Shown: positions 31,307 through 63,384, numbered from the whole stretch's first letter. The stretch is DNA of 63,384 bases, filler included, from Reclinomonas americana ATCC 50394 (GCA_048213135.1; 12 parts of 8 records of this genome joined end to end with filler, not necessarily neighbours in it), one strand, 5' to 3'. The notes: a model not told the origin generated them from the letters alone. Program-made: numbers and translations.

Positions 31307-33179
31307 ATGACACGACACAAGAATCGCCTCCACGCGTCACCATCCTCGCGATCTCTCACCAACTGTTGCGCACACGAGAAAGCTGAGAGAGATGCTCACC
31401 ACTCGCAGTCGACGTCCACGTTTCTTACACTTCTTCTCTCTTCCACTCCCTCCACGTCGCTGTTTGCGTCGTTACACAGCTGCTGCTGCTGCTGTGTGTG
31501 AGCAGTCGGCGAGTCTTGTCCGCGTTCGATTCCGCGTCACTCGAGTGCTTCCGTTTGGTCAGCGATTGGTGCTGGTGGGCGCCCATGAGAGACTTGTTGC
31601 GTACATGCGGAAGGAGAGGCACTATGTCTGTGAGAGAAGGGCGTGCTGATCGCATTCCGCACTGCAGGGCGAGTGGAATACTGAACGAGCAGTGCCACTA
31701 CATTGGACCGAGGGACATGTGTGGCGATCGCCCGCTGTCGAGGTTACAACATTGTATTTTCTTCGCCTACTGCTCCACCTATGTCACTCACTTTCTTCGG
31801 TGGCGACAGCTTCCTGCGCGTCAGTCACTGGCCTGCAAACTGGCCGCGGTTTGGGACGGTGGCGTGCAATGGGAACGCGGACCCGATCGCCTGATCGAGG
31901 TGCCGACTGCTGGCGAGGGCGAAGTGCACGTGTTGGAGTGTCTGTGGGAGCCACGCGATGTTACGCTGCGAGTGCACAAGCATGTGCCGCACGGACGCGT
32001 GTTGGCGGTGTGCGGATCGTTACCGGTGCTGGGCGAGTGGGATGCGGGGCGGGCCTTGCGCATGGTGTGGAGTGCGGGTGATGTGTGGTCGTGTCGACTG
32101 GTGGTGGCCTCGCTCGATGGAGAGCAGCAGGCCGCGGTGCTGTACAAGTTCTTGATATTACCGGTGGTGGAGTCGTCGTCGTCGGCGGCCAGTGCGGCGG
32201 CCGCTGTTGAGGAGGTGCTTGAAGCAGGGAAAGGGCTTTCTGCATCTCTCTTGCCTTGTGTGCTTAATTATTCTGGGTGCAGGCACCTGTGCCTGCGATT
32301 TGGGAGGGCGGAGAAGACCGCCGCCTCGTGTTGAAGGATGCCGAAGTCGGCACACCGTACCTCGCACCGATTCAGGAGTGGGTGCGTGCACGCCCTCGCT
32401 TCTTCATCTCCTCCTCCTTCTCGTCCTCAGTCTCCTTCTTCATCTTCTTCTTCTCGTCCTCCTCCTCCTTCTCCTCCTCCTCCTCCTCCTCCTCCTCCTC
32501 CTCCTCCTCCTCCTCGCCCTCCTCCTCCTCCTCGCCCTCCTCCTCCTCCTCTGTCATCCACGTGCTCACTCCACTCACCACGCGCAGCACGATCGACTGC
32601 TCATTCGTCTCCGTGCCAAGCTGCCACCAACAGTGTCAGCTGCGCGGCTTGCGGTGTGTGGTTCGCGCACAGAGTTTGGTCAGTGGAGACCAGAAGACGC
32701 GGCGCCCATGGTGGAAGTGAGCGCGGGCCTGTACGAGTGTCCACGCGCGGTGCCGATGACGGCGGGTGACGCCGAAAAAGTGGCGTTCAAGTTTATTTTA
32801 CGGGCGCAAGACCACGAGCGTGTGGCCTGGCTGGATGTGGAGAACCGGCACGTGAGCTTGCATCACATTTCGTGGGACGGCATTGTCGAGTTTCGACTCT
32901 CGGAGAGTGAGCTGGAGGCGGCACGATCGGCACAGGTCTTTACCCCGGAAGTCGTCTCTCTCTCTCGCGTGCCCTCTCTTTGTGTGCTCACCACATTAGC
33001 AGGTGACAGACGCACTCGAGGCCACCAATCTGTGCCGCCTGTGCTGCGATGCTCCGCTGCAGGCCGCACTGGATCCGTGCGGTCATTTTGGCATGTGTCT
33101 GGCCTGTGCACGAAACGTGCGCGTGTGTCCCTTTTGCCGGCAGCGCATCAAGGCGGTGCTGCCGATTTTTAAGCCGTGA
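31307..33179 (+). CDS. Triple CBM20 (starch/glycogen-binding) protein with C-terminal C3HC4 RING finger
   Basis: CBM20-1: VRFRVTRVLPFGQRLVLVGAHERL|GEWNTERAVPLHWTEGHVW...VQWERGPDR. CBM20-2: LAVCGSLPVLGEWDAGRALRMVWSAGDVW..YKF..WEGGEDR. CBM20-3: LAVCGSRTEFGQWRPEDAAPM..FKF..WLDVENR. A phase-0 intron at 32936-33002 joins final exon 33003-33179, LCRLCCDAPLQAALDPCGHFGMCLACARNVRVCPFCRQRIKAVLPIFKP*. Start codon tentative. Confidence 0.85.
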
Positions 33180-33983
33180 GAGTATAAGTGTGCCGTCATC
33201 TTTAATTATAAATCGACGACGAAACCAGAGACAGCTCTACTGCGCACCGTCTCTCCCACCTNNNNNNNNNNNNNNNNNNNNNNNNNNNNNNNNNNNNNNN
33301 NNNNNTTAATTAATTAANNNNNNNNNNNNNNNNNNNNNNNNNNNNNNNNNNNNNNNNNNNNTTTGGCATTTCCTCTCTCTCTCTCCCCTGATTCTCACAC
33401 ACGTGAAAGAGGTGAGGAAGAAAGAGGGACAGGAGGAAACAACAGAAAAAAAGACCATTTGAGTACAATCACACTGAGACTTGCCACTTGCAAACACTCG
33501 CTGGTTGTGCATGATCACTACTGATCAACAGCAATGATAAGCAGGTGCTCATACCCCAAGCAAGAGAGGAGAGGAAGAGACAAACAGCCAAGGAGAGAAT
33601 ATTTCTCAACCCATTCTCAATCCCTCTCCAATTGGTGAAAAGAGGAAGAGAAACAGAGACATGCGACAAATGGAAGCCCCAATCATCCGCACACCAGGCG
33701 AGAGAGGAGAGGGAAAGATGGGGACAGCATACGAGAGCAATGCACATACAAAGAGCAAACAGAGAAGATTTCTCCATCCATTCTCAATCCCTCTCCACTT
33801 GGCGAAAAGAGGAATGGACGGAGAAACAGGATGCGGGAAATGGAACCCGCACCCCAGGCGAGAGAGGAGGGGAAAGATGAAGACAGCACACGACGGCCAT
33901 GCACATACAAAGCAAAAAACAAACAAGTAAGACGAATATCCCCCTTTCCATCCTCCTCTCCCTCCTCCTTCCCGCGCACTCAC

Positions 33984-34779
33984 GTTATGCAAATCAAAGG
34001 CCCCACTGCCGAGGAACACATTCGAATCCGGGCAGTGAGCCACCGCCGCGCCACTGGCCTCGAAGCGATCCCACTCCGAGTCCGTCAGGTAACAGCAATG
34101 CGCGTACACACTTTTCTTGTGCACCATGCCGGCGCGCTCGTACACCTGCAAGTAGTCCTCGGCGTCGAACGAGTTCTTGGCAATGTCGACCTCGTCGGGG
34201 TTCTCGCCCAGGTGCGTGGTGACCCACAGATCGTGCTCACGCGCAAAGTCCGCGGCCGCCGACATGAGGTCGCTGGTGCAGGAGAGCGCGAAGCGCGGAA
34301 TCACCGCCAGCTGGATGCGATTGTGGTTGTGTCCGTGCCACTTGTGCAGCAGTCCCTGCAGACCGGCCAACGCCTCCTCCTTGTGCACAATCAGGTCCTC
34401 GGGGCACGCACGATCCATCAGCACCGGTCCACCAATGACACGCATGCCGACACGCGCGCACTCCTCAAACAGCGCATGCGAGGAGCCGGCATGCACCGAG
34501 CCGTACACCATGGCCAGCGTGGTGCCAGCGCCCACCAGCGAGGCGACAAAGGCACGCGCCATCTCCGAGGCGTGCGCAGGGTCACGGTACAGTGATTCTT
34601 CCGGGAAGGTAGAGTATTTGAGCCAGTCGAGCACTGGAGTCGGATGAGGTGAGCAGAGCGAGAGAGAGAGAGAGGCCAAGGAAGCGTGCGAGTGAACGCA
34701 ACGAGGTCCCGAGGCAGCGCCGCCGATTCGAATTTGCGGGAAATGCACGTGGCAGTCGATGAACGAGGGCAGGAGGAAG
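33984..34779 (-). CDS. guaD: Guanine deaminase (amidohydrolase superfamily), internal exons
   Basis: FIDCHVHFPQ (HxH), LLDWLKYSTFPEE, GTT, AVIPRFALSCT, THLGEN..E, YAHC, HCPDSN.FLGSG; exons 34779-34703 and 34633-33984. Confidence 0.9.
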
Positions 34780-34919
34780 CTGAGTGGGGGAGGGAAAGAG
34801 TGAGAAATGGGGAGAATATCGGAATCTCGCTCACAATGTCGACGGTGTGAGAGTGAGAAAGTGTGCAAAGGCGACGTCTAAAGCGACAACTAAGTCTGCA
34901 CGTGCATGACAAAGGGTTC

Positions 34920-35200: not shown

Positions 35201-37214
35201 ATAGAAAGTGAAAGAGCAAATTGCATGTCAAAAAGTGCTCACATATCATCCTCTCTTCTCTCTCCCTCTCTCACATCCCTCTCTCCCTCACCCACAGACA
35301 CTCAACTTTGGCAGCAAGTTCTCCGTCACCAACGCGCCATGTCTCTCATCATCATAGCGTTCCACTCGCGTAATCAGCCCACTCCTCGACACACCCACCA
35401 CACCATCCTCATAGTACACAAGCTCACTCTCGCCACCATCGCTGGCCTCCAGTGCCGCGCTGGAGTCGGCGTGGTGCATGGCACTAGTGCGCGTGGAGGA
35501 AGAGGAGGAAGAAGGCGCGCGAAGCTCCGGACGGCATGTGAGAATGCGTGCGCGGAGCAGCTGTACTTCGTCGGTGGCCTGGTGCTGCTCGCTTGACATG
35601 AGAGATGATTGAGAGATGAGATGAGAGGACAAGTGAATGCTGGACATGCATTGGTTGTCGTGTATTTGCTCGACGTTGTGCGCCAGCTCGCTTATCGCCA
35701 ACAGCACTGGCCTTCTGGAGCCAGCGTGGTGCATCGCACTGGTGCACGTGGTCGACGAGGAGGAGGAAGAAGAGGACAACGCTGACCTGCGTGCACGTGC
35801 NNNNNNNNNNNNNNNNNNNNNNNNNNNNNNNNNNNNNNNNNNNNNNNNNNNNNNNNNNNNNNNNNNNNNNNNNNNNNNNNNNNNNNNNNNNNNNNNNNNN
35901 NNNNNNNNNNNNNNNNNNNNNNNNNNNNNNNNNNNNNNNNNNNNNNNNNNNNNNNNNNNNNNNNNNNNNNNNNNNNNNNNNNNNNNNNNNNNNNNNNNNN
36001 NNNNNNNNNNNNNNNNNNNNNNNNNNNNNNNNNNNNNNNNNNNNNNNNNNNNNNNNNNNNNNNNNNNNNNNNNNNNNNNNNNNNNNNNNNNNNNNNNNNN
36101 NNNNNNNNNNNNNNNNNNNNNNNNNNNNNNNNNNNNNNNNNNNNNNNNNNNNNNNNNNNNNNNNNNNNNNNNNNNNNNNNNNNNNNNNNNNNNNNNNNNN
36201 NNNNNNNNNNNNNNNNNNNNNNNNNNNNNNNNNNNNNNNNNNNNNNNNNNNNNNNNNNNNNNNNNNNNNNNNNNNNNNNNNNNNNNNNNNNNNNNNNNNN
36301 NNNNNNNNNNNNNNNNNNNNNNNNNNNNNNNNNNNNNNNNNNNNNNNNNNNNNNNNAAATTGGTCGGGCTTGAATCGTCTGTGGCCGCGGCTGCAGACCA
36401 GACCATATCCAAGCACCTGCACAAGCACCTTCTCGCACACCAGCCACGGTGACATCGGCAACATAAAGCGTGCACGCGGTCTGAGACTTTCAGCATCGAT
36501 ATTGGAGCTGCGAATTCGATCGGAACCAAGCATCATTCACCAGCAAACAAGCACCAGCTGCCTTGATGACCAAGTTCAACCATAGCCAAAACATCAACAC
36601 AGACACCAATCTTGAGGCAGCAGCAGGTTCCTTGCGAGTGTTTGAATTCGCTCTCGGAGCTCCGAACAAGTCGAGAACTGCAATCTTCACCGCAAAAGCG
36701 TGGTTGACCTGTGGATTTGACGCACTTGCACAGACGCATAGCGTTTTCTGCGATCGTAGACGGCACATTGAATTCGGGAAAAGGCCACAAGCCAGGCAAA
36801 CAACGCAATGCCGGGTCCGGATCCGAGAAGCAGGCAAAGCAAGCAGTGGAGGTGTGACGTGGTTGAAAAACAGAAGAGAGCTTGTCATGCTGTTGGTGAG
36901 GCTCATATCGGTGGTGGTTTTGGGGGTGGAACGCTGAGGTCCTCTGCAAAGCTGGAATTCGAATTCCATATCGCGCAGAATTCGAATTCGAAGATCCCGC
37001 TACCCCCTTCCCCTTCCCCTTCCACCTCCCCCTTCCCCCCACTTCTCACCCTCTTGTGTAACACGCTGTACACAACACCCCCCAACGCACAGAAAAAAAT
37101 GCGGTTTTTCGCTCAACCAATTTGTCTGAAAGCTCGATTTTATTTCACTCTTTCGGCGAGAAAAGTCACTGTTGCGGTTTTTCCTCTCACATCACACCGA
37201 CACACGCACGCAAC

Positions 37215-38406
37215 ATGGGCACCTCTCTCTCACGCGCTCTCGCCGACTGCCTCGCTGGCGGACGCAAGAAGACGCCACCGGCCGGCGGCCAGCAGAAGAA
37301 GAAGAAGGTCACCACCCCGACCAAGTCGTGCACAGTCAACAACAGAAAGGTGCTGTACCACTTGCCAGAGGCGAGCGCGTCGATGCCTGAGCTCGCGTGC
37401 GCCACACCCGTGTCGACGCTGGACGGACGGCCGTTCCACAGCATCGAGACTCTGGAGGACCCCGCAGAGGACGAGCGGCCAGCGGGAGAGCAACTTCGCG
37501 GCGTGACCATGACGACGACAACCATGTCGGCGTCGATGCTCAACTTGTCGCTCATGTCGCCGAGCAGTGCGGGCGGCTGCGGCAGTCCTGCGCGCTCGGC
37601 GCTGGCGTCGCGCTCAGGACGGCGACGTTCGTCCATGGTGCGCTTCGAGGCCACGGTGGAGGTGCAAGAGTTTGAGCGAGGCACTGACGTGGAGTCGTTT
37701 GCTCGCGCACGGAGGTCGTCGTTGACGCCGGTTTACTCGGTGGAACTTGGATCGCCGGCCAGCAGCACGGCGAGCCCGACGGCGTCGCCTTCCATTCGCA
37801 CCTTGTTGGCCATTAAGCGCACAGCCAAGGCCACTACTGCACCGGTGTTTGCGGAGGGACAGGCACCAGCGGCAGTGACAGCGGCAGAGCCGGCGGTGCT
37901 CACGCCGACACGCGTGCAGGTCACGCGGCAGAGACCTGCCTCGTTGGCGCGCATGTTTGCCGAGGCCGCAGCGCAGCCGCAGTCGCGACGCAAGCCGAGC
38001 AAGTACGCGAGCGACAATCCCGACGATGCCATGATGGTGTTTGACGAGCCGGCCGCCAAGGTCGGCGACTCAAGCGATGCCGATGTGGTGGTCATTGACG
38101 ATGCCGAGTACAATCGCCAGCTCAAGTCGTATTGCGCGTCCGGAGGGCGACGCGCCTCGGTGGCCTCGTCGGGCAAGGGCGAGAGTGGCTTGTTGGATAA
38201 GGTTTGTTACGGGGGGAAAGGAAGATGGCACGCGAGCACAAGAGCAACCTGCTGACTCTCGTTGTGCGCAGTCGCAGGGCACCGACAATGTGCTGGCGTG
38301 GTGTGCCGATGTGTGCGCCGATGCCGGACGGCGGCACAGCATCAGCAGTGCGACGTACGTGCCGGGCTATGGAATTGCCACGGGACGTACGAGCCGAGCA
38401 CTGTAA
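37215..38406 (+). CDS. Hypothetical Ser/Thr/Arg-rich protein with N-myristoylation-like start (MGTSLS), copy 1
   Basis: Long exon 37215-38200, intron gtttgt..gcgcag, last exon SQGTDNVLAWC...SRAL*. Frame is conserved in copy 2, including an in-frame 6-nt indel. Confidence 0.7.
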
Positions 38407-38982: not shown

Positions 38983-39598
38983 GACGACGTACGTACGTAC
39001 GTACGTACGTACGTACGTACGTACGTACGTACGTACGTACGTACGTACGTACGTACGTACNNNNNNNNNNNNNNNNNNNNNNNNNNNNNNNNNNNNNNNN
39101 NNNNTTAATTAATTAANNNNNNNNNNNNNNNNNNNNNNNNNNNNNNNNNNNNNNNNNNNNTCCGTGAAGCAGGCAAAGCAAAAACAGTGGAGGCGTCGTA
39201 ATTGATGCAGCGGTGTGGTTAAAACAGTAGAGAGCTTGCCATGTTGTTGGTGAGGCTCATATCGGTGGTGGCTTGAGCAGGTGGTAGGCGCAGTCGTTGC
39301 GCTCCTTCCCGACGTCTGCTGCAAAGCTGGAATTCGAATTCCGGATCCATATCGCGCAGAATTCGAATTCGACGATCCCGCTACCCCCCTTCCCCTTCCC
39401 CTTCCCCTACCCCCTTCCCCCTGCCCACTTCTCCTTCTTGTGTAACACGCTGTACACAACACCCCCCAACGCACAGGAAAAAATGCGGTTTTTCGCTCAA
39501 CCAATTTGTCTGAAAGCTCGATTTTATTTCACTCTTTCGGCGAGAAAAGTCACTTTTGCGGTTTTTCCTCTCACATCACACCGACACACGCACGCAAC

Positions 39599-40785
39599 AT
39601 GGGCACCTCTCTCTCACGCGCTCTCGCCGACTGCCTCGCTGGTGGACGCAAGAAGACGCCACCGGCCGGCGGCCAGCAGAAGAAGAAGAAGGTCACCACC
39701 CCAACCAAGTCGTGCACAGTCAACAACAGAAAGGTGCTGTACCACTTGCCAGAGGCGAGTGCGTCGATGCCCGAGCTCGCGTGCGCCACACCCGTGTCGA
39801 CGCTGGACGGACGGCCGTTCCACAGCATCGAGACTCTGGAGGACCCCGCAGAGGACGAGCGGCCAGCGGGAGAGCAACTTCGCGGCGTGACCATGACGAC
39901 GACAACCATGTCGGCGTCGATGCTCAACTTGTCGCTCATGTCGCCGAGCAGTGCGGGCGGCTGTGGCAGTCCTGCGCGCTCGGCGCTGGCGTCGCGCTCA
40001 GGACGGCGACGTTCGTCCATGGTGCGCTTCGAGGCCACGGTGGAGGTGCAAGAGTTTGAGCGAGGCACTGACGTGGAGTCGTTTGCTCGCGCGCGGAGGT
40101 CGTCGTTGACGCCGGTTTACTCAGTGGAACTTGGATCGCCGGCCAGCAGCACGGCGAGCCCGACGGCGTCGCCTTCCATCCGCACCTTGTTGGCCATTAA
40201 GCGCACAGCCAAGGCCACCACTGCACCGGTGTTTGCGGAGGGACAGGCACCGGCTGTAGTTGCGGAGCCGGCGGTGCTCACGCCGACACGCGTGCAGGTC
40301 ACGCGACAGAGACCTGCATCGTTGGCGCGCATGTTTGCCGAGGCCGCAGCGCAGCCGCAGTCGCGACGCAAGCCGAGCAAATACGCGAGCGACAATCCCG
40401 ACGATGCCATGATGGTGTTTGACGAGCCGGCCGCCAAGGTCGGCGACTCAAGCGATGCCGATGTGGTGGTCATTGACGATGCCGAGTACAACCGCCAGCT
40501 CAAGTCGTATTGCGCGTCGGGCGGACGACGCGCCTCTGTGGCCTCGTCGGGCAAGGGCGAGAGTGGCTTGTTGGATAAGGTTTGTTACAGGGGGGAAAGG
40601 AAGATGGCCTGCGAGCACAAGAGCAACTTGCTGACTCTCGTTGTGCGCAGTCGCAGGGCACCGACAATGTGCTGGCGTGGTGTGCCGATGTGTGCGCCGA
40701 TGCCGGACGGCGGCACAGCATCAGCAGTGCGACGTACGTGCCGGGCTATGGAATTGCCACGGGACGTACGAGCCGAGCACTGTAA
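39599..40785 (+). CDS. MGTSLS hypothetical protein, copy 2
   Basis: Near-identical to 37215-38406. Confidence 0.7.
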
Positions 40786-41023
40786 GGTTGAAAGGCACGC
40801 GGAAGAGAGAAAAAGAAAAAGAAACGATACGACAATGTATAGGACGAGGGGAAGATTGTGTAATCGATATGATCTAACGCACGTATTGCAGCAAACAAAA
40901 AACGATATGTAGGAGGAGGAGGAGGGGGAAAACGACACGCACGCCCACCACCACAAACAGAAATGGCAATGGAGTAACCAAGGGGTGGCGGCGGCTCAAA
41001 ACAAAAACACACAAAAAGCAAAA

Positions 41024-46215: not shown

Positions 46216-49200
46216 TTAGGCACAGCGAAAGAGAGAGAAGTGCGGTTGGATATAGCACATTTTTTCGCTCCATATCTTCAAACCCGACGTGCAGTCACCG
46301 CTCGTCGCACACGCGGTCCCTGTCGACGTGGCCACCACGCCACTCTTCGGCACACACTGCTTTGTCGACGCAGTGAATGTCCACGAGCCGCAGGCAGTCA
46401 GTTGGGAGCACCACTGTGAGCAGGCTTGTGGTCCGGTTGTTGTCTTGATGGCCCATGTGAGATCGCCACCAGGTCGATCTGCATGCAAACAATAAGCCAC
46501 ATGTCAGTCACGCATCTCTCATCTCTACCACTCACCCGTGCTGGTCTGGAAACCGCTGCTGTCGTACGCAGCCGCACTCGTCTTGCGTCCCGAAACCAAG
46601 CAGAAATGCGAGCCACACACATTGCCGGTCTCAGCATTCGCCGCCGTTGCCGGCACGGTACTCTGCACGCAACAAGAAGGTGAGCTCGTCGATCCTCGCA
46701 AGATCGCTCTTCATGTGCTCGATCATTGCATGCCTTCAGCGTGCACACACTCGTGCCGTACGCGTTCGATGCCGCAGCAGCATCCAAGAATGTCCACGAT
46801 CGACATTGCGAATACTGATCGCACAATTCGCAACATCCAACTTCGCTGGCAACGGCCGACAACACAGCGACGATCGTGCCGCCGGGTCGATCCACAGCTT
46901 CGAACTGGCACACTTCCAAAGCCGCTGCTCGAAGCGAGTGCGAGTGAGACAGCAGAAGATGACGAGAACGAAAGCCCACAAGTAACGCAACAAGCCACAG
47001 CTCCATTCTGCACCGTTGAACAACTTGTGTTCATTGCTACACACGCAAATCGATAAAGTTAGTGCCGTCCCCCATAGTGCTCACTGTGCACACCATCTGC
47101 CACGAAGAGAGAGAGAGAGAGAGAGAGACAGCTGAAGGACGTCGTCATAGAGAAAACGGTGCTGGACAGCGTCAAAAGCGGGCAACACTCTTGAAAGAGA
47201 AAGACTTCATGCGTATGCAGTCTGCAATCGTCGTCAACCCGTGATACCACTACTCTGCGCTTCGCCTATCTCCCACAGTTGGACTCTGGACAACACTGCC
47301 CTCTTCCCACCCTAAGCCAGTAATCTTTGACCCGCTACACATCACCCTCCACTCTTCACCTCGATTCCTCTGATTGTCTTCCCTCGCCATTCTCAGCCCT
47401 GCACGTCTTGGCACTTAACCCTCTCCCTTGTCCATCTGTTCCCCTCGTCTCTTATCTCCTTTCCCCCTGGCGCACCATAGACAATCATGAACTGCTTGGT
47501 GTACGTCAGCGTGCCATCGCTCACTTGCACAAACACTTGCAGTCGCCGACTCAGCGGCGGAGCCACCGAGATGGTCAGCTGATTGCCACCAACCAGACTG
47601 AAAAGAGCCGCATGCACACCACCAACAATAGTGAATGTCGGCGACTGTCCCGTGTTGAGATCCAGCATGCTCAGTGTGCCCACGGTGAATGGCACCGTCG
47701 CACTCGAGTACGTCTGCGCACCAGACAGCAGAATGTCACTCGGACCAACACTCCCTGCACATAAATATGGTCATCTGACACTCGCATAAAAACACATGCT
47801 TACATACATACCGACATCCATGCACATAGAAGGAGAGGGGAGAGAGAGAGATAAATTGCGACAGAGAGAAGAACAACATGAAGGAATGAAGCACAGTTCT
47901 AGTTCTCCACACACAAACAAACAAACGACGCTAAATACTCCCTGCGCTCGTTCTTCCCCTTATTCCTCACCAATGGCGAATGCCGACACCGCCAGATACG
48001 TCTTGGTTGACGCCCACCGTGTGCACAGCTCGTATGTGCCCACAGCTGCACCCGCCGCTCCAATTGTCAGCGTGATGCTGGTCGCACTGCCGAATGCACT
48101 GCTGACGGTGGTGCTGGCCACGGCCGTCGGCGGCGTCGCGGCGGCACAGAGAGGAGTGGCCACCACATACGCCGACGCATCGGCCGAGTTGTTCACCAAC
48201 GCGGTTCCCGTCAGAGTTATCAACTGGCCAGCCAGTGCTGACACAAAGGTGGCCGACAGCGAAGTAACAGTCGGTGCTGCACGCAAAATGGGAAGGCAAA
48301 TCAGCATCATCGCGCATCACAACAACAGCACATAACAAGAATAGCACACACCAGCAATGTTGAGGGTCTGATCGAATGACATTGCAGGGTTGCCATTGTC
48401 GGTGGTGCGCACAATCACCACCAACGAGGCCGTCACTCCCGCACCCACGAACTGCAGCTGGTTGCCAGACGCAACCGACACCAATGCGCTGCTGGCACCA
48501 CCCACCACCGAATACGTGAACGATTGCTGCGAGTCCACATCACTCGTGCTCATCGTGCCGATCGTCTGCCCCACCGCGCTGGGTGGAATGTATGAGCTCG
48601 CACTCAGCGTCACCGCCGTCGGTGCATTGTTCACTGTGGGAAGACAAGGTCAGCATCCACACCATCATGATCATCAATCAACCATCCACTCACCCGACGT
48701 CACACTGAATGACTTGTCGAAGAACATCGGAGGTGTGCCATTATCAAACGACCGGATCGTGACGGCCAGCGGACTTCCCGACTGGCCCGCCGACGTGATC
48801 TGCAACTGAGCGCCTCCTCCCAGGGAAAACACATTGCTGTTTGCTCCTCCACTGACCGCGTACGTAAACGACTGTCCCACGTTATCGTCGCTGGTGCTCA
48901 TCGTACACACAGCCATGTTGGCCGTCGACGGTGCGACATATGTGGTGGTAGAGCAAGCAATGTCGGTCGGCGTCGAGTTGGAGGTGGTGAAGGAGATGGT
49001 GGAGCCGGTGAGCGTGGTGGGCACGGTGGAGGTGGCGAGGGCACGAAAGTAGTACGTCCAGTTGGCAGCGAGTGATGTCAGCGACGCGGTAAGGGCGGTG
49101 CTGGAGGCGACGCCGGAGGTGGCGGGTGTGGCGGAGACGGTGGAGGAGCCGATGGTGAGCCGGCGGATTGTAGAACTCATGTAATCTGCGAATGCTTATG

Positions 49201-59199: not shown

Positions 59200-62100
59200 T
59201 TATTTACTCATCATACACGACGTCAGTAAAGTCTGGCATAAATGAACCAATATCCTCTCGTGCAGCTGCTCTCGCATCACGATTATAGACTTGCCCAATC
59301 CTCGAATGGTCAAGTCTGCCGCGACTGCGACGGCGCGATGGGCGAGGGAAACGGCATCCGGCGTGCCCTCATGCACTTCATTGCCACTCGCTAGTGACCA
59401 AATTCGCACAATGTTGTCAACACTCTGACTTACAATGTGCTGCCCGTCAGGAGTGATCGTGACAGAAAACACTGAGCTGGTGTGCCCCTCCAGCCGTCGG
59501 ACTTCCGCACCGCTCGCCAGATTCCACACTCGAACACTCTTGTCAACACTTCCGCTCAAAATGTACTTGCCGTCGTGAGTGACTGCAACAGTCAGTACAG
59601 AGGCACTGTGACCCACCAAATGTTGCAGTATCTCCCCGCTCGCAAAGGACCACACGCGCACTGAGTTGTCCCAACTCCCACTAACAACGTAGTCAGGTGG
59701 AGATGGATATTCGCGCTCACCGAGTGGCAGGAGCTGACCACACGCAACAAACGCAAGAGCCACATCGGTCACCTCAGCAGTATGTCCCTCCAATCGTCGC
59801 ACTTCTTCCCCACTTGCGACAGACCACGCTCGCACCGTTTCATCTCTGCCTCCACTAACAAAGTGTCTACTGTCAGGAGAGACGGCGACAGCATTCACTG
59901 ATCCCGTGTGTCCCTCCAGCCGTCGCACTTCTTCTCCACTCGCCAGTGACCATACTCTAACGGTCATGTCCTCGCTTCCACTTACAACACAATGGCCATC
60001 GACTGTTACAACTACCGAGAGTACAGCAGCAGCGTGTCCCACCAGTTGTCGCACTTCTTGCCCGCTTGTTAGTGACCAAATACGCGTTGTTTTGTCATTA
60101 CTCCCGCGCGCTCACGATGTACTGACCATCAGGAGTGACGACAACAGCCTGTACGCCATCGGCGTGTCCGTAGTACCGTCGAACTTCTTCTCCACTGGCC
60201 AGAGACCACATCCGAATGGATTTGTCTCCACTCCCACTCACAGCGTGTTGGCCATCTGGAGTGACGGCAACGCACCATACGACACCTTCATGCCCCTCCA
60301 ACCGTTTCATCTCCTCACCACTCTCCAGCGACCACACTCGCAAGGTCTTATCCCAACTCACGCTTACAACATGTAGACCATCGGGAGTGACAGCGACAGA
60401 ATTTACAGCTCCAACGTGTCCCACCAACCGTCGCACCTCTTTTCCACTCGCCAGTGACCACACACGTACTGACGAGTCTTGACCCCCACTGATAATGTGT
60501 AACCCATCGGGCGTGACGGAAACAGCCCACACCCACCCAACATGTCCTTCGAACCGTTGTACTTCTTCGCCATGTGCCAGTGACCACACACGCACAGTTG
60601 TATCATGGCTGGTGCTTACAATGCGAAGACCGTCGGGAGTAACGACAGTTGCATTCACGAAGCCAGTGTGACCCACCAGAGGCTTCCTCGGCCACTTCAC
60701 ACACGTCACATCCGCCCCTCTGAAATCCGCCTCTCTCGCATACGCCATGCACACATTCACATCTCGCAAATCCGCTCCCCTCCACACCGTCCGATGCATC
60801 ACCGCATCCCTCAAATCCGCACCCCTCACTCGCACACCCGACAGATTTCGCCCACTGAACGACACTTGTGCCACACACAACACCGTCGCTGCATTCGCCG
60901 CGGCCGTTTCCACTCGCTTCTCATCCACCTCACGCGACAACTCAATCACCTCCCACAGTCTCGCTTGCAATCGAGGAGATCGTCGCACCACCTCCGCCAT
61001 CTGCTCCACCAACGATGGTCTGTCAGTAAGCAGGCGCACAGCTAGTACATGCTGCTGCACATCTTGCGCCGTCAACCCCCTCTCCTCACCCCATGACTCC
61101 CATGCGAAAACATGCCGCGCCACACAGTGCTCCAGCAACGACAGATGCACAAATCCCCACTGCGTCGTCCCATACCGTCGCACAATCGGACAGCACACTC
61201 GCACATGCTGGTTCTTGTGACCGAGGAACTTGTCAAACGGTTCTTCCTCCCGTCGTGGAATACCATGTGGCGCACCACCAAAGTCATCCTCCTCTCCATT
61301 ATCCTTTGGTCGACTCTCCAGCACAGACACACGCACCACATTCCTCTCATGCATCAACCGTGCCAGTCCCTCACAGAATGAGACACATGTCTCCTCACTC
61401 GGCAAACGCTCAGCTGCGAGACGCGTCTGTCTCTCCTGCTCCCTATCAATCCACTGTCGAATGAATCGATCAAACACATCTCGCCGAGTCGGTCGCTGCA
61501 TAGCAGTCGCCACCAACTGTGGCAACACACGAGCCACCACAGCTAACAGGAACGGATTCGACACCAATGTATCCAGTCCGCGTACACTCTTCAGTGCATG
61601 AATGTACTCCTCGGCAGTCGACCATCGCACTTCACCGTCATCATCATCACCACCCGCTTGCACCGATCTCACAAAGTACTCCTCAATCTGCTCCTTATTG
61701 AATGGTGCAATGTGCCGCTCCATCAGCTGCTGCATGCACAACTGTCCTCGTGCATCCACTGGCGCAAAGTATCGTCGATAATGAGTCACGCCACCCAGTG
61801 CAGTCAGTGCATAATCGCCTCGACAGGTGATAATCACCTTCACATCGCGACACACATCCAGCTGGTTCTTGACAAAGAGGTTCACACCACGATACAGCTT
61901 GTCGTACCCGTCAAGCAACAACAACAGTGGCTCCTCCTTCAATCGTCGCACATCCGACTCACTGAATCCCAACTCGGGTGACAGTCGCTCCAGTGCCTCC
62001 TCTAACAACCGCTCATCGGCATTGCGTAGAGCACCAAGAGGTACACGCACAGGCACTCGTCTGCTCTCCCTCGTCTGCCACTGTCGCCACGCTCGTTCGG

Positions 62101-63384
62101 CCAGTACCGACATGGTGGTGGTCTTGCCAGCACCACTGTTGCCAAACAGCACCAGTGCATGATGGGTGGTGTTGGCGTCGGAGAGGAAGGCATCATCCAC
62201 CTCCGTCAACAGATCTGTCATCTTGTCACTCGAGGAGATGTCACGCTCACGTGAGCACAGCAGTGGCACATACGTTCGTATGTCCTTGTGCACGCTCTCG
62301 TCGTGCTGGTAGAAAGTGAGCTCACGCACAGCCAGTCGATGCAATCGCACTACAAATGTACTGACGTTGACGTCAAGATGGCGTGCTTCGCGAATCCGTG
62401 ACACAAGTCCATCGAGCGCATCGGCAGGTAGCTGCAACTTGCCAACAAGGGCGAGGAACGCGCCACGGTCACCGAGATACTCTTGCACAGAGGCCCCGCT
62501 GAACGCCGACGATTCATGGCTTAGCTTGTTACGCACCTCTCGCAACTGTTCCACCGTCTTGCGCTCAACGGCATCGTCTATCAACATCATCTTGCAACCG
62601 CCATCACGCACAAAGCCACCAAAAAGCAGGATCGACGTCAGAGCTGTCACATCAAATGCGTCACACGGAGGGTCAGAGGCGGGATCGGCATCGAAGGCAG
62701 TCTTCCAGTCGAGCAAGTGTTGCTGTTGTGGTGCAAATAGCTTAACTCGACCGGGGTGGAGTGGCGCATGTTGATCGTACCACGCCTTCATCGTCAACGG
62801 ATGCCAGAACAAAGGCGGAGTGTACACATCGGGAGTCCAAGCCCGCACATCAAAATCGGGATGATCGCGACTGAACTGTGCCAGTGTGTGTTTACAGCGC
62901 AGACGTATGGCGTCAGCAACGGCCTCCTACGCCACGTCGATACGATTCGAAAGGGCCATTCTGCAGAGACATCATGCAAGTTGGAACGAATGCAGGCAAG
63001 TCAGTTGTAACGATGAATGACGACAAACCGCTCCGTCCATCCGGGAGCGCTTGACACAGAGAGTGCAGATGAGTTCACTCTCTCAAAAAGTGCACACAAC
63101 AACATGCAGAACAACAATAGTCACCTTGCGAATCCACCCACAGCCGGAGAGGGGGCCTCAGACGGCATGGTAACGCGCACAAACAAATGGGTGGTGGCCA
63201 TAATTTCCAAAGTGCGCAGCAGAGTGCCGCCACCGTCCACAATGTCAAACTCCATTGGTTTCTCCACTCCCACAATCTCCATCTCCGCATCTCCACCCTT
63301 CTCACGCAGCAAGCGCGTGGCCTCGCGCAGCAAGTCCGCGAGAGTGGACACGGCCGACATGCCCTCAACTACCACACACCCCTA
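59200..63384 (-). pseudogene. NLR-like STAND protein: HEPN (DZIP3-like) - NACHT - pentapeptide repeats - ~10 WD40; in-frame TAG and a frameshift as assembled
   Basis: FDVTALTSILL...VEQLREVRNKLSH (Rx4H, 62533-62516). Walker A GNSGAGKTT (~62120-62143) and Walker B LLLLDGYDK (~61900). VIITCR, NPFLL, FVHLSLLEH. AAANAATVL..SFSGRNLSGVRVRGADL (pentapeptide). 42-aa GH...W repeats. TAG at 62929-62927; extra bases near 60106. Confidence 0.85.

Follow-up and report, generated by a model that had tools for sequence, protein, structure and literature searches.

The window analyzed here is a stretch of 63,384 nucleotides (nt) from the genome assembly of the jakobid Reclinomonas americana ATCC 50394 (GCA_048213135.1). 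Close to its end, the minus strand carries one gene (62959/62791 to 59200) that encodes an N-terminal head, a NACHT nucleoside triphosphatase (NTPase), a pentapeptide segment, and ten WD40 repeats. An earlier note on this DNA had described the gene as an NLR-like (nucleotide-binding, leucine-rich repeat receptor-like) protein of a protist with a HEPN RNase as its head, and the elements that it named were all found on the minus strand where it had placed them. The coding sequence is read as two open reading frames (ORFs) of 916 amino acids (aa) (62848-60098) and 284 aa (60054-59200). We consider them as two pieces of one gene, since four extra bases within WD40 repeat 5 are what splits the product in this way. 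The layout is the tripartite one of a head, a STAND (signal transduction ATPase with numerous domains) NTPase, and repeats, with the frame interrupted once, at 60112-60103. The Pfam matches and the repeat analysis described below both support this NLR-like architecture. Features are listed in table 1, with residues numbered from the GTG at 62848.

The NACHT domain matches PF05729 with an E value of 4.9e-8 (33.4 bits for a cut-off of 26.7) and carries the Walker A motif GxxGxGK[ST] as GNSGAGKT from residue 236, so that both the profile score and the motif place it in this family of NTPases, as had been claimed. The pentapeptide profile PF00805 matches residues 663-696 with 18.7 bits (E 1.3e-3), below its cut-off of 20.2. 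In the best register, 10 of the 16 five-residue units have a hydrophobic center, and about 11 units can be aligned by hand in a single register. At the equivalent position, proteins related to the query through its nucleotide-binding oligomerization domain (NOD) match PF00805 above the cut-off, with scores of 27.9-49.6 bits. The pentapeptide repeats of the earlier note are probably present, with the Pfam match itself below the cut-off. The WD40 profile (PF00400) matches five stretches in each of the two ORFs (E 3.7e-43 and 2.3e-49). Cutting the tail at GH dipeptides yields ten repeats of exactly 42 aa each; repeat 8 contains a 16-aa insertion and repeat 5 is split by the frame change. The count of ten WD40 repeats agrees with that of the earlier note.

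The NOD region belongs to a large group of proteins. An exhaustive HMMER search with residues 1-640 retrieved 1394 proteins at E<=1e-3, of which 812 were still found at E<=1e-10 and 33 at E<=1e-30. For all 150 listed matches the best stretch lies in the NOD and starts at query residue 99 at least, mostly at 180-230; with a query of this extent, proteins matching the head only would rank below these 150. The matched stretches of relatives extend to query residues 575-640 and include the helical arm past the NACHT core, and a YVPL motif preceding NACHT is conserved between the query and its relatives. The fungal relatives come from Mortierellomycotina (genera Modicella, Mortierella, Linnemannia, and Gryganskiella), and others from the glaucophyte Cyanophora paradoxa (P0089) and from metagenome assemblies. 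The best match, P0002, is an expressed sequence tag (EST) product of R. americana (EukProt), 93% identical to the query over residues 241-389. According to this comparison, P0002 would be a paralogue of the gene or the orthologue of a close relative. As it derives from an EST and is 93% identical, it points to a jakobid source for the window gene and to the transcription of a family member. This fits the protist origin proposed earlier.

The first 27 residues of P0002 resemble another frame of the gene (ORF 62196-62002), the range of the gene covered by P0002 being 62196-61680. From the P-loop on, P0002 follows the main frame, and an insertion or deletion at this point must therefore distinguish the EST from the window. 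This frame change is either a read error of the EST or a sign of a second damaged copy, two origins that a single-pass EST does not separate.

Related NACHT proteins carry diverse heads. We scanned 38 relatives with Pfam (20, then 18), keeping the best 25 families for the WD40-rich proteins. ARM_5 (PF23948) heads were found in 11/20 of the first set and 3/18 of the later one, a protein kinase head in P0005, and TIR_2 heads in P0021 (E 9e-8) and in P0089 of Cyanophora (E 1e-20). P0044 has a weak MIT match in its head. Many of the 38 share the pentapeptide and WD40 tail. These matches support the membership of the query in a modular family with swapped heads. A search for related loci centered on P0005 found nothing. 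In a FastTree phylogeny of 145 NOD regions, from which P0002 and 6 short rows were left out, the query has a long branch (1.21) and belongs to no supported clade; it lies outside a well-supported clade of 53 rows that contains all seven named fungal rows. It joins Cyanophora P0089, a grouping flagged as a possible long-branch artefact, and we claim no donor, origin, or transfer from this tree.

The head, of about 160-175 aa, is predicted to be entirely helical. Its GC content by codon position (0.67/0.41/0.60 for residues 1-178) equals that of the NACHT part (0.64/0.41/0.59), unlike that of the flanks, which is flat; the head is therefore coding. The two sequences on which the HEPN assignment had been based are present, FDVTALTSILL at residues 64-74 and LREVRNKLSH at residues 102-111 (62545-62516). 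Among the 24,736 models of the Pfam set, HEPN_Swt1 (PF18731) is the sole family matching the head, and the match always falls on the helix containing VRNKLSH. Its E value was 0.014, 0.004, 0.0026, 0.0011, 0.0007, and 0.0007 as the piece searched was shortened from 703 aa to 46 aa. Ten antisense ORFs of this gene, taken as an informal control, matched no Pfam family at E<=10. Eight other ORFs of the window had no Pfam family at E<=0.01. A bare Rx4H motif within 200 aa is not beyond chance; the match of a HEPN family profile across this very helix is. HEPN domains are described in PMC3710099 as having an Rx4-6H motif, typically with an asparagine after the arginine, and this asparagine is the rule in the DZIP3-type HEPN domains of the pearl oyster presented in PMC9646362. 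In the query, R106-N-K-L-S-H111 conforms to the Rx4-6H pattern, in which a polar N, D, or H follows the arginine.

PMC3710099 also describes the HEPN fold as a four-helix up-and-down bundle whose motif lies where helix 3 ends and which frequently has an insert between helices 2 and 3. Two AlphaFold2 models of the head made from the single sequence contain helices at 39-53, 67-76, 96/99-111/115, and 121-137 (DSSP). The third helix bears the motif at its C-terminal end, and 20 residues are inserted between helices 2 and 3. This pattern would agree with the published description; at the low confidence of these models it does not count as a test of the fold. The predicted helix 2 begins around FDVTAL, whose D65 could correspond to the acidic residue of HEPN helix 2.

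Several results weigh against a HEPN head. The HEPN_Swt1 match scores 16.1-20.3 bits, under the gathering cut-off of 27.5, and is confined to profile positions 74-113 of 115. As the alignment spans just the last 40 of these 115 positions, HEPN helices 1 and 2 are unmatched. HEPN_DZIP3 (PF18738), the family named by the earlier note for comparison, had no match at E<=10 on any of six head pieces, a threshold to be read with the HMMER filters, which remove most matches above E ~0.1. All HEPN models of Pfam other than Swt1 likewise left the head unmatched, and PADLOC and NCBIfam searches of the head gave nothing meaningful. No clear Ex3[KR] acidic motif was seen upstream of Rx4H in the head sequence. 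The mean pLDDT (predicted local distance difference test) of the two models is 37.8 and 39.6, with almost all residues below 60. Foldseek comparison of the first model to the PDB gave nothing at E<=0.001 and no HEPN among 42 weak rows. No HEPN family was found in the 38 scanned relatives, among the best 25 families kept for WD40-rich proteins.

Homologue searches with the head lead in the same direction. Word-based searches were run in a set of 5.8 billion proteins, covering lengths of 127-405 and 503-1603 aa. With head residues 1-205 and target lengths of 503-1603 aa, none of 1057 candidates reached E<=1, and with the head as a stand-alone query of 231 aa and target lengths of 127-405 aa, no homologue was found among 696 candidates. 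Comparison of the head by phmmer with 151 NOD relatives gave a best E value of 0.23 (residues 1-200). Pattern matches to the head were confirmed in none of 212 cases in metagenome contigs, 88 in prokaryote genome contigs, and 3 in viral contigs, and tblastn with the head had no match in plasmids.

The Foldseek rows, such as 14-3-3 and ribosomal proteins at E values above 2, were discarded as noise. Phmmer searches of PDB sequences with 213, 66, and 156 aa returned a single irrelevant row at E 0.3. A search for HEPN_Swt1 sequences to compare with the head had no match in an E. coli K-12 record or in 14 control genomes. An R[polar]x3-5H pattern was present upstream of the P-loop in 9 of 31 short-headed relatives; the four examined are low-complexity linkers adjoining YVPL and not HEPN-like, and we rejected them.

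On balance, we take the head with moderate confidence for a genuine HEPN domain, a reading that is plausible but unproven. The earlier proposal of a HEPN head is weakly supported by the match on VRNKLSH, below the cut-off, together with the asparagine after the arginine; HEPN_DZIP3, the family that it named, had no match.

The copy present in the window shows three oddities. The frame break AGCGCGCGGG at 60112-60103 corresponds to four surplus bases in a GC run of WD40 repeat 5. After the break, the frame meets a TAA (60100-60098), and a different frame encodes the other 5.5 blades. The Walker B motif LLLLLDGYDK has K317 at a position where relatives have E (89/90) or Q (1/90), the count being based on the 90 of 152 stored proteins with a Walker A plus a Walker B detectable by regular expression; it therefore departs from hhhhD[GAS]hDE by its second acidic residue. 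The EST product P0002 has DGYDE at this site. Ten codons after the upstream ATG, an in-frame TAG (62929-62927) is spanned by an in-frame GT..AG interval of 60 nt (62935-62876); it could be a nonsense lesion, lie in the 5' untranslated region (UTR), or be inside a candidate 60-nt intron. As the propeller is truncated and the Walker B glutamate replaced, the copy is not expected to work as proposed and is, judged by its sequence, probably not a working receptor. Against decay, the sequence is a rough draft of short contigs joined by spacers, in which the frameshift could have arisen during assembly, and the TAG may belong to an intron or a UTR. We regard decay as probable and faulty assembly as its serious rival. 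In the preferred reading, the copy is a member, recently decayed or badly assembled, of a small family that has another, transcribed member.

We lean, with a little more confidence than doubt, toward the following explanation as a whole: a nuclear protist gene, most likely of the jakobid, encoding a STAND/NLR-like receptor with a head that is most likely a very divergent HEPN RNase of the Swt1/Abi2 type, a NACHT NTPase with its helical arm, a short beta-helix of pentapeptides, and ten WD40 blades, present here as a probably defective copy. By analogy with known receptors, the WD40 and pentapeptide part would keep the protein off until a ligand binds. Nucleotide-dependent oligomerization of NACHT would then gather the heads, whose putative catalytic motif would be R-N-x3-H (R106, N107, and H111) at the end of a long helix. 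Paired HEPN domains could build a composite RNase site and cleave RNA, and this cleavage might lead to cell arrest or death. An immune or abortive-infection role is suggested by this analogy only, and the lesions of the copy argue against a working receptor.

The same NLR-like gene might instead carry an unrelated, lineage-specific helical domain as its head, a homotypic adaptor or another effector, in which RNKLSH and the Pfam match below the cut-off would be fortuitous traits of an amphipathic helix. In its favor are the limitation of that match to one helix and the lack of a DZIP3 match, of a PDB sequence match, and of fold support. Many relatives also have nonenzymatic heads, such as ARM_5 in 11/20 of the first set, and HEPN was not seen in the 38 that were scanned. 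We nevertheless regard an unrelated head as unlikely, because the lone family retrieved from 24,736 is HEPN, is aligned on the catalytic motif with N after R, and finds no parallel in the ten decoys (0/10), and because HEPN heads are documented on NACHT proteins elsewhere. A different question is whether the gene is intact and functional, the break being a draft error, the TAG being noncoding (5' UTR or intron), and K317 being tolerated or marking a hydrolysis-deficient NTPase. The window contains 28 N runs, and its short contigs are linked through 44N-TTAATTAATTAA-44N spacers. Long open frames on both sides of the break with a perfect 42-aa repeat spacing, the preserved coding signature, and the 60-nt GT..AG in-frame interval across the TAG also speak for integrity. 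Against it, three independent oddities occur within one gene. The Walker B site is E in 89/90 relatives, including the 93% identical EST product, and K317, being a substitution, is not explained by an assembly error of the indel type. An intact gene appears doubtful to us on these grounds.

The contig might also come from a bacterium living in the nonaxenic culture of a bacterivorous protist, the gene being an ordinary bacterial NACHT-pentapeptide-WD40 gene of the defense type. Some high-ranking NOD relatives are indeed from metagenomes (P0005, P0008, P0009, and P0013), the tree places the query in a large group with metagenome rows outside the fungal clade, and the ORF is free of introns. But a product 93% identical to the query comes from an R. 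americana EST library, the 3' flank is a CT-rich low-complexity sequence with microsatellites at contig ends, and about 270 bp of noncoding spacer lie upstream of the gene. Moreover, the nearest row in the tree is the eukaryote C. paradoxa, although this may be a long-branch artefact. A bacterial contig is very improbable in the face of these observations.

Proteins with a comparable organization have been described in several lineages. According to PMC3710099, DZIP3/hRUL138-like HEPN domains are fused to NACHT in animals (bivalves and Nematostella), the family having its own lineage-specific expansion in Capsaspora, and HEPN domains of the CXorf38 type (Swt1/Abi2 clade) are fused to NACHT in cnidarians and cephalochordates. 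The pearl oyster survey of PMC9646362 reports >50 NACHT proteins with an N-terminal DZIP3-like HEPN, and its NACHT-domain proteins can have LRR, TPR, or WD40 repeats at the C terminus. As in these animal proteins, a head with R-N-x3-H, putatively of the HEPN type, precedes NACHT in the query, and by analogy a presumed RNase effector would be activated by receptor oligomerization. In contrast, the DZIP3 model has no match here, the Swt1 model being the only one and below its cut-off, the NOD has fungal, glaucophyte, and metagenomic relatives, a pentapeptide segment precedes the WD40 repeats, and the host is a protist. Bacterial Swt1-like HEPN-STAND-TPR proteins, of the Npun_F6454 type (PMC3710099 Table 1), combine a HEPN of the family of the matching Pfam model with a STAND NTPase and repeats. 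Their repeats are TPR or S1, unlike the pentapeptide-WD40 tail of the query. In Discoba, to which jakobids belong, Naegleria is reported in PMC3710099 to have active "solo" proteins of the Swt1 HEPN family. One small supplementary file of that paper mentions neither Reclinomonas, jakobids, Naegleria, nor NACHT.

The ARM_5-, kinase-, and TIR-headed NACHT proteins (P0003-P0020, P0021, and P0089) share the NOD (27-37% identity, E values down to 3e-51), the YVPL motif, and often the pentapeptide-WD40 tail with the query, which differs from them in that its head is swapped and its long branch lies apart from the fungal clade. In the fungal HET-E/HNWD proteins, a death or effector domain of variable kind is found N-terminal to NACHT and to a tandem array of very regular WD40 repeats. 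They resemble the query by NACHT followed by regular WD40 repeats and by the variability of the head. However, the query has a pentapeptide segment, its named fungal relatives are ARM_5 proteins of Mortierellomycotina, and residues 1-703 contain no Pfam match to a HET or PNP_UDP head at E<=10. The KEN domains of RNase L and Ire1 are, as far as is known, active only once ligand-driven oligomerization pairs two of them. They belong to the HEPN superfamily and are metal-independent RNases with an R-N-x-x-x-H-type site, as outlined in PMC3710099. The query has a candidate site of the same type, but ankyrin and kinase domains accompany KEN where WD40 and NACHT accompany the head here, and no similarity in sequence was detected.

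Much work has been devoted to the NLR-like receptors of animals, plants, fungi, and, by now, bacteria. To our knowledge, almost none has been recorded in free-living protists such as jakobids. Full-text literature searches found no paper joining Reclinomonas and NACHT, jakobids with both NLR and innate immunity, or HEPN, NLR, and protists. Bivalves, cnidarians, cephalochordates, and bacteria already have known proteins of the HEPN-NACHT-repeat design, and what would be new here is the host lineage and the presence of this particular head on the NOD chassis. Should the head function as a HEPN RNase, the "sensor-switch-RNase" design of RNase L, bivalve HEPN-NACHT, and bacterial HEPN-STAND proteins would reach Discoba, and the gene family would also offer a small, testable case of how effectors are exchanged on a single NOD chassis between eukaryotic supergroups. 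That jakobids, a deep-branching eukaryotic lineage, keep a small expressed NLR family, with a lineage-specific, highly divergent HEPN RNase head grafted on the NACHT-pentapeptide-WD40 chassis that fungi, a glaucophyte, and metagenome organisms combine with ARM-like, kinase, or TIR heads, and with the window copy recently disabled, is a proposal that we consider quite unlikely to hold in full. Were it true, free-living Discoba would have an NLR immunity of the head-swapping kind whose suicide effector cuts RNA, and the disabled copy would reflect the birth-and-death turnover seen in immune gene families. The immediate value of the finding is modest, as the architecture is known, the assignment of the head unproven, and the copy seemingly broken.

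Table 1. Features of the NACHT gene in the window, with their positions and the basis of each assignment
Feature	Position	Strand	Basis
Upstream in-frame ATG (MALSNRIDVA...), start used by the earlier note	62957..62959	-	Codon walk in the ORF frame
TAG in frame with the upstream ATG, ten codons past it	62927..62929	-	Codon walk
First ATG past the TAG (M20), most conservative start	62789..62791	-	Codon walk
N-terminal head, residues ~20-178, predicted all-alpha	62315..62791	-	Codon-position GC; low-confidence models
FDVTALTSILL, residues 64-74, predicted second helix of the head	62627..62659	-	Sequence; low-confidence model
Stretch matched by HEPN_Swt1, residues 94-132 (profile positions 74-111 of 115)	62453..62569	-	Pfam, below cut-off
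R106-N-K-L-S-H111, Rx4H motif with asparagine after arginine	62516..62533	-	Sequence
NACHT NTPase, residues 232-393	61670..62155	-	PF05729
Walker A GNSGAGKT, residues 236-243	62120..62143	-	Sequence
Walker B LLLLLDGYDK, residues 308-317	61898..61927	-	Sequence; K317 codon AAG at 61900-61898
Helical arm past the NACHT core, residues 394-661	60866..61669	-	Homologous to the same region in NOD relatives
Pentapeptide units (~11), residues 662-716	60701..60865	-	Pfam match below cut-off; register by hand
WD40 repeats 1-4 and first half of repeat 5, TAA at 60100-60098	60101..60679	-	Pfam; repeat register
Frame break AGCGCGCGGG	60103..60112	-	Four extra bases relative to the 42-aa register (...IVS / SNDKTTRIW...)
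Second half of WD40 repeat 5, repeats 6-10, and 55-aa tail, TAA at 59202-59200, other frame	59200..60111	-	

The contig of the gene extends from 58712 to the end of the window. Eleven joiners were found in 10623-58711 (e.g., 58612-58711), each with 44 N on either side of the 12-mer TTAATTAATTAA, which is a spacer with stops in six frames; the other N runs, of 476-767 bases, are ordinary gaps. The window is thus an artificial chain of short contigs, and neighborhood across the joins, to the left of 58711, is meaningless. The 3' flank of the gene (58712-59199) is a CT-rich, imperfect low-complexity repeat with spurious long plus-strand ORFs rich in L, S, and P, and (CA)n runs at ~58560-58611 end the neighboring contig. 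Such microsatellites and CT-rich low-complexity flanks look eukaryotic. On the other side, 270 bp upstream of the gene, lies the end of an 86-aa open frame without a Pfam family (63124-63381, minus strand). This frame continues beyond the window and presumably represents the last part of the preceding gene.

Rfam and transfer RNA (tRNA) scans of the window found nothing. Elsewhere in the window, two plus-strand ORFs (37062-38252 and 39446-40909) flanking a contig joiner share a start of about 60 aa ending in ...MGTSLSRAL, without a Pfam family, and may be paralogues or belong to two haplotype contigs. Two minus-strand ORFs of 376 and 394 aa (4109-5236 and 7251-8432), also without a Pfam family, have near-identical starts (..ANPSRLPLNSNVNLGTLPPP..). 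Finally, the ORFs at 31387-33169 (plus strand), 33609-34877 (minus), 46401-47030 (minus), and 52006-52716 (minus) include two CBM_20 starch-binding ORFs, an amidohydrolase (E 1e-31), and PAN_4 and NHL-repeat ORFs.

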